Position numbers and translations under genes: made by a program. This document shows positions 2,953-31,400 of a stretch of 64,000 nucleotides of DNA, piece by piece. The notes under the pieces are model-generated. The model had not been told where the DNA came from. It worked only from the letters and a program-made list of their open reading frames with translations, and made no database searches. The stretch is from Squalus acanthias (Eukaryota). Every line of letters starts with the position of its first letter. Position 1 is the stretch's first letter. The stretch covers positions 42,222,001 through 42,286,000 of the forward strand of contig CM059446.1 of assembly GCA_030390025.1 (NCBI GenBank), written 5' to 3'.

Positions 2953-3591
2953 GAAGGGGAGGGGTCGAGTTGTTATGATCTGTGCACCTTGAATTTCTAA
3001 GTTCAAAGCAAATTGCTCCTTCACCATAATTAGAAGTTGAGGAACTGCCTTCAAGCCCCCTGCCTGTCCTTCTCGTAACTGGGCGCTACAGCTGAATGCC
3101 AAAGGAGAGGTGACAGTAACTGCCCTTGTAATCAAGGCAGTGTTTGACTGAGTATGGCACCGAGGAGCTGGAGCAAAACGGAGGTCAAATGGAACCCCTC
3201 CAGTGGCTGACTAGGCACATTATTAGGTTAAAATCAGAGACACTGTTAACTAGCAGGTTAAGATTTATGTGAATGAGGGTGTTTCCTTCTCCATCCCAAT
3301 AAAGCTTACAGTTTTTGTGATAATACAGCAGAGTATGTATTTCAGTAGTTTTTTTTTAGATGGAACAATTTGTAAACCCTTTGCCAAACACCCATCCATT
3401 TGTTATTCCTTATAATCAGACAGTGATTGTTATTGCATTTCCAATGTGGAGCAACAAAAGTCTCATTATTAATAATAATATTATTGGAACATTACCAATG
3501 TCTCGTAGGAGAAAAACACTCCTGGTGGGCTCAAGAATGACCTTTAACCTGATTTCAAGTTTAGTACACAACATGCTCTCCGAGTCACAAC

Positions 3592-23371: not shown

Positions 23372-23377
23372 TTTATT
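23372..23377 (-). terminator. Candidate distal polyadenylation signal AATAAA
   Basis: Minus strand reads TTTAAATAAAGTTTTTCCATAAAAATACATTGTTGCT: hexamer, possible CA cleavage site, then a GU/U-rich tract. The UTR-like sequence ends nearby. Confidence 0.45.
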
Positions 23378-24909: not shown

Positions 24910-26186
24910 GTACATAAGAACATAAGAAATAGGAGCAGGAGTAGGCCAATCGGCCCCTCGAGCCTGCTCCGCCATTCAATAAGATCATGGCTGATCTGAT
25001 CCTAACCGCCAATCTACTATCTACTATCACAGAACCATCTCCTGCATCTAACAGAATTGCACACACGAAATAGGAGCAGAATCAGGCTACACGGTCCCTG
25101 GGCCCGCTCCACTACCCACAGGGCCATGACCGATCCGAACCAAGACTCATGTCCAAATTCCTGCCCGCTCCCCGTAACCCTTAATGCCCTTTACTTCTAG
25201 GAAACTGTCTATTTCTGTTTTAAATTTATTTAATGATGCAGCTTCTACAGCTTTTTGTGGCAGCATATTCCATGGACCTACCACCCTCTGAGTGAAGTAG
25301 TTTCTCCTCATCTCAGTTTTGAAAGAGCAGCCCCTTATTCTAAAACTATGTCCCCTAGTTCTAGTCTCACCAGTCATCGGGAACATCCTCCCCGCATCCA
25401 CCCGATCCAACCCCTTCACAGTCTTATATGTTTCAATAAGATCGCCTCTCATTCTTCTGAACTCCAATGAGTAGAGTCCCAATCTACCCAACCTCTCCTC
25501 ATATGACCACCCCCTCATCCCCGGGATTAACCGAGTGAACCTTTTTTGCACTGCCTCGAGAGCAAGGATGTCTTTCCTTAAGTAAGGACACCAAAACCGT
25601 ATGCAGTATTCCAGGTGCGGTCTCACCAATACCTTGTACAACTGAAGCAATACCTCCCTATTTTTATATTCTATCCCCCTAGCAATGAAAGCCAACATTC
25701 CATTTGCCTTCTTAATCACTTGCTGCACCTGCATACTAACCTTTTGAGTTTCGTGCACCAGGACCCCCAGATCCCTTTGCACTTCAGTACTCTCCAGTTT
25801 CTTGCCATTAAGATAATAAATTGCTCTAGGATTTTTCCTGCCAAAGTGCATCACCTCACACTTTCCAGTGCTGTATTCCATCTGCCAAATCTCTGCCCAC
25901 TTACTTAGCCTGTCTATGTCCCCTTGCAGGTTTTTTATGTCCTCCTCACTCACTACTTTCCCTCCCATCTTTGTATCATCTGCAAATTTTGATATGTTAC
26001 ACTTGGTCCCTTCCTCCAAATCGTTAATATAGATTGTAAAGAGTTGGGGACCCAGCACTGACCCCTGTGGAACACCACTAGTTACTGATTGCCAGTCTGA
26101 GAATGAACCATTTATCCCAACTCTTTGCGTTCTGTTAGATAGCCAATCCTCTATCCATGCCAGAATATTACCCCCAATCCCGTGAG
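24910..26186 (-). mobile_element. CR1 LINE (RT to 3' end) with an uninterrupted ~345-codon ORF2 remnant and a double 3' tail
   Basis: ORF 25147-26202 has [32 protein letters not shown] and LVRPHLEYC. Tail motifs aataggagcag at about 24928 and 25068. Confidence 0.95.
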
Positions 26187-26800
26187 TAGGAGGAGGGTGC
26201 ATGAGGGATGGGACAATGGCCTAATATCTTAGGCATGCTTATGATGAAAATTAATTGGAAATTCTAAATGATTAATGATGCCACCACATCATGAGATACA
26301 AAAGAAGGTAGGACAAATGGGCTTTTAACTTTTTTTTTTTTAAATGGCTTTGTGAACTTACATTTTCAAAATTTCCAACAGCACAATCAAAAACCAGACT
26401 GTTCAAAGCAATACCAAAAAGATGCATCTCTAGCCTGTAGTGTTGAGCAGAGTGACACTGACACCCTCCATAGGCTGAACCATAGCATCTCATACCTCAA
26501 CACGGTGGGAATGAGGGGACATGGAAACAAGCCGGGATTTAAACCAACCTCAAACAATGGCCATAATGATTATTCTGTGCACGGTAATGATTTTAGTGTA
26601 TACAGTACTTCAACATGACTGCTGTATATATGAAAAGATGCCGGATTTGACTCAGGATGTTATCCATGTACAGTTGTTGCTGCATCAAAATAAAAAGCAA
26701 GCATTTAAACATCATTTAAGAGAAGACACAACAATCTAGTCTTCTGGGAGTGAAGAACTAAACTCCTACTTTTGATACACAAAGGTGAACGAAAAATAAA

Positions 26801-26835
26801 TCTTTGGTTTTTATGGGCGGCTGATCTAGCTGTAT
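26801..26835 (-). promoter_or_regulatory. miR-9-5p target site with 8mer seed plus 12-nt perfect 3' pairing
   Basis: Plus strand TCTTTGGTT (26801-26809) equals miR-9 nt 1-9. ATCTAGCTGTAT (26824-26835) equals miR-9 nt 10-21. Confidence 0.75.
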
Positions 26836-29800
26836 TTGAAAATAAAATATTACTAATACTGAATTTATTGGGGGGTTTTTTTTAATTCAGAAGGAAGCAG
26901 CTTTATTTACTCACCGTTGTTCTGTGAAACTTGTGTAGCCAAGAGACAGAACCCTTTTATTGTTCAACATTGGTTACATTTTTTTTTTTTAAAGCTATTA
27001 CAAGAACCTTTTCTTTCACATACTCCAGACTGTCGTAACGTCATATGTAACCGCTGCAGACAATGTGACTGTCAGCCACAGAAATAATGCAGTCATCTTT
27101 GGAGAAGGCCTCAGCCAATCACATTGCAGCAATTCAACGGAATTGTTAAAGAAATTAAAGTGAATGTTAGACAGCTGGAGTATTTCACTTTGGTTTGCGC
27201 AGAAGAATTTGGTATTTCTTTTTTTTAAAAAAAGCTTTGAATTAGAATCTAGGTTCATCGGGAAAAATAGTTTGTCTCTTTAAAAATGGCAAATAATCAA
27301 TGATGCCTAAAGCATCTCATAAAGCTTCGTAGTTAGTCAGAGAAAGAGAATCCTCTTGTACTCAGTGATATTAAACAATTACTTATTGCAATATTGAGGA
27401 GAAATGCACATTTTCAAAATTACATTTGGAACTACAAGAGAATTCTCTTTTTTTTCATCCATCAACTCTATTGCAGGTTACATGAAAAGTGACACAGTTC
27501 TTGGGTCTGGAGTTCAGATACTGCATAGACACAGTGCCCTGTCAATATATATAAAAAAAATCCAACAAGGAAAAGTAAATCTTTGGATATAGACACATAT
27601 CATTTACCTTTGTATACCGCCTTGACTTACTAATACTATGGGATGACACTAATCTGAAAGACAAGTGCTAAACTGACTATTACTATAATTCTGATCTACG
27701 CTATAAAGAGCAGAGTGCAGCTAACCAGAAGTAGTACTCAGTAGTTAGTACTAAGGATCTTTCATTGAGCCGATACAAGGACATAATTCAAACATTAAAA
27801 CCTTTTGGATTTGGATAGGGCAAAGAACTGGTTTGTAACTAATTTTGGACATCAAAAGATTGGATATCTACTTAATATAATTCAAATTTTTCTATAACAG
27901 CCCTTGGGTGTTTTCACATCAATATAATTAGTTCCCCAAATCAGTTTTCCAATTACACTAGTGTAATATTGTATTGGAAAATCAATTTCTATTCAAACAC
28001 ATACAAGTCACTACTTCTGATTGATTAGTAACTATCATAAAATTAAGAGATTTAACTGTTAAAAATTAAATGGCCCAAAAAATCCGACAGGAAAAAAAAA
28101 GTTTATGTACATTTTCTTTGGTAAGCTCGTTTTAAAATAGTTTTGATATATCAGCGTCGCATAGGTGTGAACATTTACTGGCACATATTTCTAGAGATCT
28201 GTTCTAACTCTTAAAAGCTACACAGTAACTATTTTAAAATCAAAAATTCAAACAAGATACCCTGTCAGTACACCACACATTTCAGTGCGGCAGTTCAAAT
28301 GTAACAATTATTTGATCCCTGAGGTTAGATAAAGAATAACACTAAAATAGGTTTTTAAAAAGAGGTAGTATCAAACAGGAGGTGCAAGGCTAGAGCACAT
28401 GAGAGTAGCAGCTTCTATTCCCTGTGAACATTTTTTGGTATCATAAAGCTCTGTTTTATGCAAGCAATTCTAAAAACACAAATACAGTGAGGCACCAAAT
28501 GATACTCTTTGGATTGCAACTCTCAAGGAGTTACTTAATTTAATACCGATAAGCTGAAGTTGTTTTGTGTAGGAAGGTGAAAAGTTACTCGTCTGAATCG
28601 CAGTAGAGTTGTGTTAACAGGGATACAGTCATTGAACACTCGAGGTGATTTTGCTTCTCACACACACACACTTTTCACAGCAATCCCAACTGAAATACTC
28701 ACCATGTTATTTTAACATGTTTGTAGAAGTAACTCAGTATCCCTTTCAATTGGATAATAAATTAATTTTGGATTTATATTCATATATGATTCAGAAGCAG
28801 AAATGCTAAAATAGTGTAATCAAATCTAAAAAAAAGTTACTGCAGTATTCTGCTTATTTTTACACATCAGGAATCTTAAGTATTAATTAAATCAATTCTA
28901 TTGTGTCATTTTTTTGCATACGGTAGAAGTTTTCCTAATGACAAATGGTCTCATACTGTTATTACTTTGCATTTGGCAGGTTGTTGAAATAAGTGAATCC
29001 ATACACCATGGGGAACAGAAGGCAAGCGTTCTGTGCTGTAAATATGAAAAGGTATTTGACTGGAATTGGGGGGGGGGGGGCGGGAAGATGAAAAAGGAGG
29101 CTTCGGGTTAAATGGCGTAATAAACAAAGTATTCGGTTAATGAGTAGAACAGGTAGCAATGAAGTGAAAAGGAATTTTTACGCTTTACCCTGTGTTAAGT
29201 CTACCATGGCAGGAGTGTATTTCGAGCTTGGGTTTTTCGTAGTTCTGAAGCAGGTCCCGATTATACACAGGTTTCGGGACATTAGTTTGGGGAACCAAGC
29301 CACTTCAAAGCTGCAGAAAAGAAATGAAATAGGACTCTACATACTAATTTAAACAGGTCACTAAGTGATCAGTAGAAATGCCCTTGGAATAATAAACTTT
29401 TGATACAAATCACTTCATCTTCAATTAAATGCTTTACCCCAGTTTAGGATTCTTTCACTAGCCAGCGCCCTTGGGAATGGACCATCACGAAGGGAGGGAA
29501 TCCCACATTTACATTTTTTTTTAAATCCTACTGTAAACTGTAAAAAGGTGCCTATAAAAGTGAATATAAAGTAGGCGTGAATGAGTGTGCATATGAACTA
29601 GCCCGATGGATGTCATACGTGCTGAAATGGACCAAACATGCAGCTGTAGGAGTATCTGTTAGAATGCATGAAATCAGAATGCAACCAGGACAGCAGAAGG
29701 CCATGATATGGGTCACTGCAGGAGGCATGTTTTTCTTAATCTCTGCATCTGCATTGTATTTTCCAGTTTCTAGAACAGGAAGCATCTAGGTAATCATTCC

Positions 29801-30147
29801 AGTTAACCCTGGCTTGCTTCAATTTGTCTGTCGTGCCTCCCAACAGATATTCAATGAAACTGAATGTACCCGAAACATTTTAGGTTCAGATTGGGTAGTT
29901 CATTCAATCTGCTTGGAGAGTAACACGGGTATAGTTCCAATGTCTTTCAAATTAGCAGCATAGATGAGTTTATTACGTAGATGGATGTTGCACTGCACAA
30001 ACTCCTACAAGTATCTCTTCAAAGTCACTCAAACCAAAGCATTTCATCTCCCCTCTGATCAAACGTGGTTTACATTTTTCACAGCTCTATGTAAACCTGC
30101 ACTACACATAAACATAACAGCAGTGAAGCATGATCTTAAGTTTCATG

Positions 30148-30356
30148 ATGCGGAGATGCCGGTGTTGGACTGGGGTGGACAAAAGTGAGAAGTCGCACAA
30201 CACCAGGTTATAGTCCAACAGTTTTATTTGAAATCACAAGCTTTCGGAGCGCTGCTCCTTCGTCAGGTGAAGTCCTGACGAAGGAGCAGCCGCTCCGAAA
30301 GCTTGTGATTTCAAATAAAACTGTTGGACTATAACCTGGTGATGTGCGACTTCTCA
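30148..30356. mobile_element. Penelope-derived palindrome with minimal hammerhead motifs; 13-bp TSD
   Basis: Arms at 30183-30267 and 30274-30359; cttaagtttcatg at 30135-30147 and 30357-30369. Confidence 0.85.
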
Positions 30357-30974
30357 CTTAAGTTTCATGGATTGGGATTGTGACTTCAATACTCGCATTC
30401 AAACATTTGACTGGATCCTCTGTCTTATATAAAAAGTGAAAGCACAAAAGTGAATTAAGACAACTTCAGCTCAACGGTGTTGCATACGGCCCCACTTTAG
30501 AATGATACCTGCTCATGTAAACAGAGCTTTAGTCAAACACTCTCATGGCAATGTCCTTACAACCCCTACATCACAGCAGAACATCATCAACAAACATTTC
30601 TTTTCGTAAAACAACATATTTCTGTAAGGAAGTATCAGCTATTAGGCAATGGAGTCAAATACCTGTTAAATACTGGGAGTTTACCATTAGGTAACATTGA
30701 GGTAGATTTTTCAGCAGAAAGCCTGAAATATTATTTCTGCTCCAGTGATATACCTTTCAAAATAAAATCAAAAGAAATGTAACGGTCCTTTTCACATTTT
30801 TTGACATACAGACATTCATGGTGGGTAAAATAAAAAATGTAACATTCATAAAAACAAAAGCGTGTAAGAACCTGGAGTGATAAAAAGACCCAGATTTTCT
30901 TTCCAGAATGTTCTTTGGCTTACTGCACATTGTCCATTGTGCAGATAAATTATGGTCAAACTGGACTGGGTAAC

Positions 30975-31400
30975 TTAAATTGGAAATTCGTTGTTGGTGT
31001 TTTCACAAGCAGTTTTTGGAGAAGGCATCTGACACACTTGAGGTGGTGCCAGCAGGTCTGAGGTAGTAGAATGAGAAACAACCAACAGGAGTTGAGCTTC
31101 CTCGGAGGTAGACGAGACAGGAATGCTGGCCGTTTCTGCCTGGACAAATGGTCCCAAGAAGGTAGGTGTAGTACATGTGACAGAAGAAAGGTGAGCCATT
31201 TCCATTTCCTCCCTGGAATCGTGTGAGTATCGGCCTGAATCTCCAGTTTCATGGCTTCCGTCACTGTTGTGAGAATATTCCGTGTCTCCCGCAGCGCTGA
31301 ACACAGCCTGCAGAGATGTGGGTGGAATGAGTATTGAGCCGCCCGATTCTTCACAGGTCAGTTGGTAAGAGCTCATGCCACGCCCATTTCTTCTCACTGG
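30975..31400 (-). CDS. PRTG: Protogenin last coding exon (about 20): PVRRNGRGMSSYQLTCEES...GDTEYSHNSDGSHETGDSGRYSHDS...NNEFPI*
   Basis: GSHETGDSGRYSH matches PRTG GSHETGDSGRFSH, and PVRR matches PQRR. Tandem acceptor ttttgaTAG-CAG (alternative start 31403); TAA stop at 30975-30977. Confidence 0.92.
   Translation of the reverse strand, partial: PVRRNGRGMSSYQLTCEESGGSILIPPTSLQAVFSAAGDTEYSHNSDGSHETGDSGRYSHDSREEMEMAHLSSVTCTTPTFLGPFVQAETASIPVSSTSEEAQLLLVVSHSTTSDLLAPPQVCQMPSPKTACENTNNEFPI

Follow-up and report, generated by a model that had tools for sequence, protein, structure and literature searches.

A 64,000-nt stretch of the Squalus acanthias genome (referred to below as the window) carries a split complement of miR-9-5p in what is very likely the 3' untranslated region (UTR) of the protogenin gene (PRTG). 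On the plus strand the match consists of two blocks separated by a 14-nt spacer, so that the PRTG-sense (minus-strand) RNA is complementary to miR-9-5p nt 1-9 and nt 10-21 with a 14-nt target loop between the two paired segments (Table 1). With moderate confidence, we interpret this arrangement as a 3'-supplementary site of high affinity, bridged by a long loop, which would add to the repression of PRTG already known for miR-9. It is likely that the site makes the PRTG mRNA of the early embryo unusually sensitive to miR-9 rather than destroying miR-9.

The miR-9-5p sequence was taken from the mir-9 genes of Squalus itself. An Rfam search of the whole genome containing the window found four mir-9 hairpins, and the joined blocks are identical to nt 1-21 of the 5p arm in three of them; the fourth differs at nt 1, and nt 2-23 of miR-9-5p are common to all four. 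In the deviating hairpin (C2240:4884-4960), C replaces U at nt 1 of the 5p arm, and the 3p arm is altered as well. The first-pass annotation, prepared from the sequence of the window alone, had given the block coordinates and spacer length exactly, and the miR-9-5p sequence that it had used agrees with the genome's own 5p arms (three of the four over nt 1-21).

Table 1. Features of the PRTG 3' region in the window, listed in mRNA direction (positions refer to the window).
Feature	Position	Strand	Basis or remark
PRTG last coding exon	30975-31307	-	Stop codon 30977-30975; 5' boundary placed at the splice acceptor visible in the sequence
Seventh miR-9-5p site, 7mer-A1, shortly downstream of the stop codon	30912-30918	-	Seed scan
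let-7 sites	28362-28368, 30698-30705	-	Seed scan
miR-9-5p site, 7mer-A1	28506-28512	-	Seed scan
Three miR-9-3p sites, 7-8mers	26989-26996, 27320-27326, 28444-28450	-	Seed scan
miR-9-5p site, 8mer	28115-28122	-	Seed scan
miR-9-5p site, 7mer-A1	27580-27586	-	Seed scan
miR-9-5p site, 7mer-m8	27188-27194	-	Seed scan
miR-9-5p site, 7mer-A1	27096-27102	-	Seed scan
Three poly(A)-signal hexamers	26956-26961, 26902-26907, 26864-26869	-	30-130 nt upstream of the split site in mRNA direction
47-nt run identical in organism E among the differences listed	26799-26845		Next longest identical run in the same aligned piece, 17 nt
12-nt block complementary to miR-9-5p nt 10-21	26824-26835	-	Offset +14
Second register in the loop	26820-26823	-	Four bases match miR-9 nt 15-18 as well (offset +5; from sequence)
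14-nt target loop	26810-26823	-	Unfolded by itself in the predicted duplex; identical in organism E
miR-9-5p 8mer seed site and base opposite nt 9	26801-26809	-	Sequence match; 8mer proper 26801-26808
Candidate distal poly(A) signal	23372-23377	-	Putative end of a UTR of ~7.6 kb

The host gene was identified as PRTG on the minus strand, as the first-pass annotation had proposed. The best matches of the minus-strand frame ending at 30975 are protogenins from sharks, rays and chimaera (39 hits), and the last-exon frame shares 88% identity with basking-shark protogenin A. The split site is located 4,139 nt from the stop codon, downstream in mRNA direction. The sense strand of the region 26231-30974 contains seven miR-9-5p 7-8mers against 0.79 expected, a number reached in 0 of 1000 shuffles, and the antisense strand contains one. 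These sites form the densest miR-9-5p cluster of the window, which is headed by the split site. The UTR also contains three miR-9-3p sites, an enrichment that is not significant (72 of 1000 shuffles reach three); their calls depend on an assumed 5' end of the 3p arm. The two let-7 sites show no 3' pairing comparable to that of the split miR-9 site (best -8.9 kcal/mol). Positions 28316-28323 (minus strand) hold a putative miR-125 8mer; a lin-4-family hairpin was sought to confirm its seed and was not found. Since miR-9, let-7 and miR-125 are the miRNAs reported to repress Prtg, the stretch downstream of the stop codon is very likely the PRTG 3' UTR. The strand specificity of the miR-9 cluster and a bridging contig from a sequencing run guessed to be RNA (see below) point to the same placement, which had also been suggested at first pass.

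The inferred UTR contains an inverted-repeat element at 30183-30359, with 69-nt arms that are 99% complementary, which would fold as a long RNA hairpin. Beyond the split site, a LINE fragment in PRTG orientation (24920-26220, minus strand) includes a 357-aa frame matching Pfam RVT_1; it lies ~580 nt past the site, possibly inside a long UTR isoform. This reverse transcriptase was the sole clear Pfam match among the eight ORFs scanned, and no convergent gene became apparent. Three poly(A)-signal hexamers precede the split site, and a scan for two hexamer types found none between the site and the LINE; thus short PRTG isoforms lacking the split site are possible. Polyadenylation at 26864-26961 would remove the split site alone and keep the six other miR-9-5p sites.

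The split site combines a perfect 8mer with 12 contiguous 3' pairs that include nt 13-16; a canonical seed with Watson-Crick pairing to nt 13-16 is characteristic of a 3'-supplementary site. The duplex energy predicted with RNAduplex is -26.3 kcal/mol, compared with -10.4 to -17.1 kcal/mol for the six other miR-9-5p sites and -36.7 kcal/mol for a perfect miR-9 complement. The 3' part of the duplex alone, from nt 11, contributes -16.7 kcal/mol (ViennaRNA), and nowhere else in the window is the miR-9 3' region matched over a greater length than by the 12-nt block. Among the six miR-9 seeds scored, that of the split site has the highest predicted accessibility (0.35 versus 0.01-0.10). The accessibility of the 12-nt block is middling (65th percentile), with part of the block paired in predicted local folds. 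We also considered whether internal structure of the loop might make the bridge shorter; this was not supported, and in the predicted duplex the loop does not fold by itself.

The target bridge of the split site comprises 14 nt, or ~17 nt in the AGO register. Previously, purified Ago2 has been reported to tolerate bridges of 1-15 nt, with a GC-rich supplement increasing affinity more than 10-fold and reporters being more strongly repressed; a weak, AU-rich supplement behind a 10-nt bridge gave only a 1.9-fold gain (10.1101/476960). For long 3' sites of let-7a, the affinity optimum was found at offset +4 (PMC8940178). Several points weigh against a supplementary function here. The offset of +14 is far from the usual optimum, and the bridge of 14-17 nt compares with bridges of up to 15 nt that worked with strong supplements, the ~17-nt AGO-register bridge exceeding what was reported to work (10.1101/476960). 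The hexamers just upstream and the partial pairing of the block in local folds count on the same side.

Conservation of the split site was analysed in sequencing data. Eighteen runs matched the region, none of them on record as RNA and 12 of them guessed to be RNA, and the contigs of four of the 18 were compared with 26450-27650 at 80% likeness. One run (X7; 73 million contig letters) comes from a diverged species, organism E; its RNA status is a guess and its contigs are strandless. It provided a single contig of 1,943 nt (depth 197), which aligned in four pieces over 26630-27625 and bridges both the hexamers and the split site. Differences in the piece covering 26630-26912 amount to 33 substitutions and 27 gap letters, and every one of the latter falls outside 26799-26845. 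No substitution occurs in 26792-26876 among the places listed; 12 of the 52 X7 substitution places are not among these and, judging from the per-piece tallies, probably lie beyond 27474. Both the 12-nt block (12/12) and the loop (14/14) are identical in organism E, and the identical run overhangs the split site by only 2 and 10 nt. Outside the site the piece differs by 14.7% substitution, which corresponds to P ~0.004 for 35 identical nt (the whole site) and ~0.15 for the 12-nt block alone. The same contig spans the hexamer stretch, where a deletion in organism E overlaps part of the last hexamer (26864-26869). Three of the five other miR-9 sites checked in this stretch lie within aligned X7 pieces and two lie outside.

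The three remaining runs do not cover the split site (the alignments of X1 and X11 end at 26773 and 26767, respectively, and X4 has no piece there), and these gaps are uninformative. The X11 contig, from organism F, extends 1,665 nt beyond 26450, which is consistent with a long PRTG UTR. No contig of the four runs aligned to 26450-27650 joins the split site to a PRTG coding exon. Coverage of the site in just one of four runs, with guessed RNA status and strandless contigs, is a further point against the supplementary-site reading. The first-pass annotation had anticipated that both blocks would be conserved while the loop drifted. The blocks are indeed kept in one other species, but the loop is identical as well. 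With the loop and the 10-nt flank kept to the same degree as the blocks, selection on the pairing itself cannot be separated out from conservation in these alignments.

To estimate chance expectation, a split pattern of 19 letters (miR-9 nt 1-8, a gap of 0-30 and nt 10-20) was scanned against the 3.71 Gb genome. Four matches were found, namely three mir-9 genes and the PRTG site, and the reversed control gave none. From composition, 1.5 matches per genome are expected with 19 letters, and 0.12 when all 21 are required. Thus, a match somewhere in the genome is not remarkable, and the split match is notable for its location, not for its existence in so large a genome. The probability of finding the 12-mer within 30 offsets of any of the seven seed sites of this UTR is ~2e-5, in line with the earlier statement that a chance 12-mer near a seed is very unlikely. 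A looser pattern gave ten matches in this genome (four mir-9 genes, the PRTG site and five others) and two in the control. Metagenomes contained 67 split-pattern matches, four of them with the full 9+12 letters. None of the 67 is homologous to the window or its PRTG UTR (best E 0.16), which shows that the split pattern does arise by chance in large data.

Two other loci of the genome have related geometries. A second long-loop match, at C10:30137217-30137252 (plus strand), combines a 7mer-m8 with an 11-nt block that covers nt 11-21 (offset +16). It sits among four same-strand miR-9 7mers in ~620 nt, with none on the opposite strand of the 3-kb locus. Inspection of 30 kb at this locus revealed no host gene, and the match may be due to chance. 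The locus C9:71463276-71463299 (minus strand) matches miR-9 nt 2-9 together with nt 12-21, and with its offset of +4 the geometry is trigger-like.

These results bear on an alternative that we judge unlikely, although it is the most probable of those considered: only the 8mer would matter for miR-9, the 12-nt match would be coincidental, and the 47-nt run would be kept for another reason, such as an RNA-binding-protein site, local structure or 3'-end processing. The equal conservation of the loop and flank fits this explanation. So does the chance expectation of about one 19-letter split match per genome, given a very wide scan over many genomes and miRNAs, which also counts against the supplementary-site reading. 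The six non-gene matches of the looser pattern against two in the control, and the four full matches in metagenomes, agree with it too. On the other hand, the sole non-gene match to the split pattern in 3.7 Gb falls on an 8mer of the densest miR-9 cluster in the window, within a known miR-9 target and at a probability of ~2e-5 for this UTR, and the identical run extends very little beyond the split site on either side.

Because the plus strand reads as miR-9 sense, the match could in principle be a decayed mir-9 gene copy with a 14-nt insertion, antisense to PRTG. This origin is largely refuted, and we give it almost no weight. The Rfam model RF00237 has no match in the window at the gathering score while it recovers four real hairpins elsewhere, no 3p arm or hairpin flank follows the blocks, and the 261 nt that surround the site are single-copy. 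Moreover, the t1-A 8mer and the surrounding site cluster indicate target function.

The first-pass annotation had described PRTG as a reported miR-9 target, and the literature agrees. A human PRTG UTR reporter was repressed by miR-9, with mutated sites at 2436-2465 and 3067-3102 (PMC3848287). The second of these spans 36 nt and would fit a ~13-nt bulge; it is a possible counterpart of the shark site, which we regard as a lead only. Prtg has been tabulated as a target of let-7, miR-9 and miR-125 with antiparallel expression (PMC9918188). It is also upregulated in Dgcr8 mutants and predicted to be a miR-9 and let-7 target in a study whose accessible part makes no mention of TDMD or ZSWIM8 (10.64898/2026.10.02.755877). 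No description of the split site, or of PRTG and miR-9 in the context of TDMD, was found in the open-access literature searched.

The first-pass annotation had put first a candidate miRNA-degradation (TDMD) trigger within a mutual-repression timing switch. Spelled out, such a scheme would make PRTG mRNA a conserved, atypical long-loop trigger of ZSWIM8-dependent miR-9 destruction. Abundant early PRTG mRNA would free the miR-9 3' end from PAZ and bring in ZSWIM8, so that the earliest miR-9 is destroyed as it appears, and the rise of miR-9 would be delayed until PRTG transcription drops. We consider this improbable, although much of the architecture is suggestive. The 8mer has A/U flanks, the 12 contiguous 3' pairs reach nt 21 of 23, and the 3' energy of -16.7 kcal/mol corresponds to the strong end of the range of validated triggers (-9.6 to -17.1 kcal/mol, calculated with another program; PMC10899785). 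The site is very likely non-coding, and Prtg and miR-9 are expressed in antiparallel fashion (PMC9918188). With nt 2-23 common to all four mir-9 hairpins, family members can be recognised alike without 3' pairing, which is thus not required to tell them apart, and a conserved loop is compatible with a geometry-sensitive element. In addition, current screens would miss long-loop triggers (reviewed in PMC10899785): TDMDfinder retains only bulges of 2-8 nt (PMC8887481), and the scheme of Lin et al. assigns the split site a score of just 4.0, after a 5.5-point offset penalty (PMC13041716).

The split site thus shares with triggers a canonical seed, at least six contiguous 3' pairs and a 3' energy in the validated range, and departs from them in its central loop. 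Loops of validated triggers measure 3-11 nt (PMC10899785), against 14 nt here, or ~17 nt in the AGO register; for this reason we do not class the site as a TDMD trigger, and the caveat of the first-pass annotation that 14 nt exceeds most trigger bulges was well founded. Loop length matters in Cyrano, where changing the loop from 4 nt to 0, 2, 6, 8 or 10 nt substantially reduced ZSWIM8 binding and AGO2 ubiquitylation, and where flank contributions are not sequence-specific (PMC13083262). Furthermore, miR-9-5p is absent from the ZSWIM8-sensitive lists for mouse E18.5, MEF and iNeuron, appearing in the all-miRNA sheet only; there, the paired forebrain values are near-equal at 146,836 and 142,294 CPM (PMC10620050). 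Together, loop length and absence from the mouse lists disfavour the trigger proposed at first pass.

The main text of PMC10499020 contains no miR-9 match beyond miR-99 and miR-999. The TDMDfinder supplement lacks a PRTG:miR-9 pair, its two Prtg rows referring to other miRNAs (PMC8887481). PRTG does not occur in the supplementary files of Li 2021 that were searched, which exclude files 1, 13 and 14 (PMC8653786), nor in the CLASHub main text (PMC13369745), and no PRTG:miR-9 trigger is present in the accessible part of PMC13041716. In the CLEAR-CLIP supplement (PMC4674787), two of the three hepatoma PRTG rows involve other miRNAs, and the tissues are uninformative. The literature searched yielded no early-embryo data on the miRNA response to ZSWIM8 loss. 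PRTG is largely switched off by E18.5, and this stage is probably too late for testing a PRTG-driven effect.

A variant in which miR-9 is sequestered without decay appears less probable still. Early PRTG mRNA would bind miR-9 tightly enough to titrate a small initial miR-9 pool, with tailing, trimming or unloading and without ZSWIM8-dependent loss. The strong duplex, the six further 5p sites on the same RNA and the antiparallel expression are compatible with such titration. However, each mRNA carries one such site while miR-9 reaches ~1e5 CPM in brain (PMC10620050), and PRTG mRNA is itself repressed by miR-9 (PMC3848287).

The high-affinity supplementary site, which the first-pass annotation had named as the alternative to a trigger, is supported by the predicted duplex, the site cluster and the identity in one other species. 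In the mechanism that we propose, AGO-miR-9 would dock on the 8mer seed site, and the target would loop out 14 nt, or ~17 nt should the AGO cleft keep guide nt 9-11 from pairing, allowing the 12-nt block to pair through miR-9 nt 12-21. Slower release of miR-9 would let a low, rising miR-9 level begin PRTG repression early, with the split site adding to the effect of the six other miR-9-5p sites and of the let-7 sites. The long loop may give the 3' helix a trajectory that ZSWIM8 reads poorly, and miR-9 would be held, perhaps tailed or trimmed, and mostly not destroyed. The sequence, its complementarity and rarity, the site cluster and the identity in one other species are observed; that the mature mRNA of Squalus retains the site, that AGO occupies both blocks, and that repression increases while ZSWIM8 is weakly recruited are inferences.

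While miR-9 repression of PRTG is already known, a natural, conserved site that forms 12 perfect 3' pairs with an offset of +14 falls outside the scoring of current predictors, which apply a bulge filter of 2-8 nt (PMC8887481) or a penalty past offset 3 (PMC13041716). The split site represents a natural test between high-affinity repression that escapes ZSWIM8 and an overlooked trigger class. If it raises affinity alone, it suggests a way for a progenitor gene to answer the first, low levels of miR-9 without consuming the miRNA. If a decay trigger were true, it would, together with the reciprocal repression of PRTG by miR-9, provide a timing switch for a central neurogenic miRNA, setting the early-to-late progenitor change, and PRTG would be the first member of a trigger class that screens drop by loop length.

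Like the long-bridge supplementary sites described previously (10.1101/476960; PMC8940178), the shark site has a canonical seed, pairing at nt 13-16 and an unstructured target loop. Supplementary sites pairing from nt 10-11 need a positive offset, and that of the shark site is likewise positive, although at +14 it lies far from the values of +2 to +4 that were optimal for let-7a (PMC8940178). The published long bridges are synthetic with a short supplement (10.1101/476960), whereas the shark site is natural and forms 12 pairs extending to nt 21. The gene and miRNAs of the shark UTR, with miR-125 represented by a putative site, are the same as in the known let-7/miR-9/miR-125 repression of Prtg in progenitor timing (PMC9918188; PMC3848287; 10.64898/2026.10.02.755877), but these works treat seed sites alone, in the parts accessible, and the shark site adds a 12-nt 3' block. 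With the ZSWIM8 triggers Cyrano/miR-7 and Nrep-libra/miR-29b (PMC10899785, PMC13083262, PMC13041716), it shares the 8mer, at least six 3' pairs, strong 3' energy, a probable non-coding location and conservation, the latter in one other species for the shark site. It differs from the known triggers in that, according to the thermodynamic model, its unpaired bases are all on the target side, and in that six more canonical miR-9 sites are located on the same RNA.
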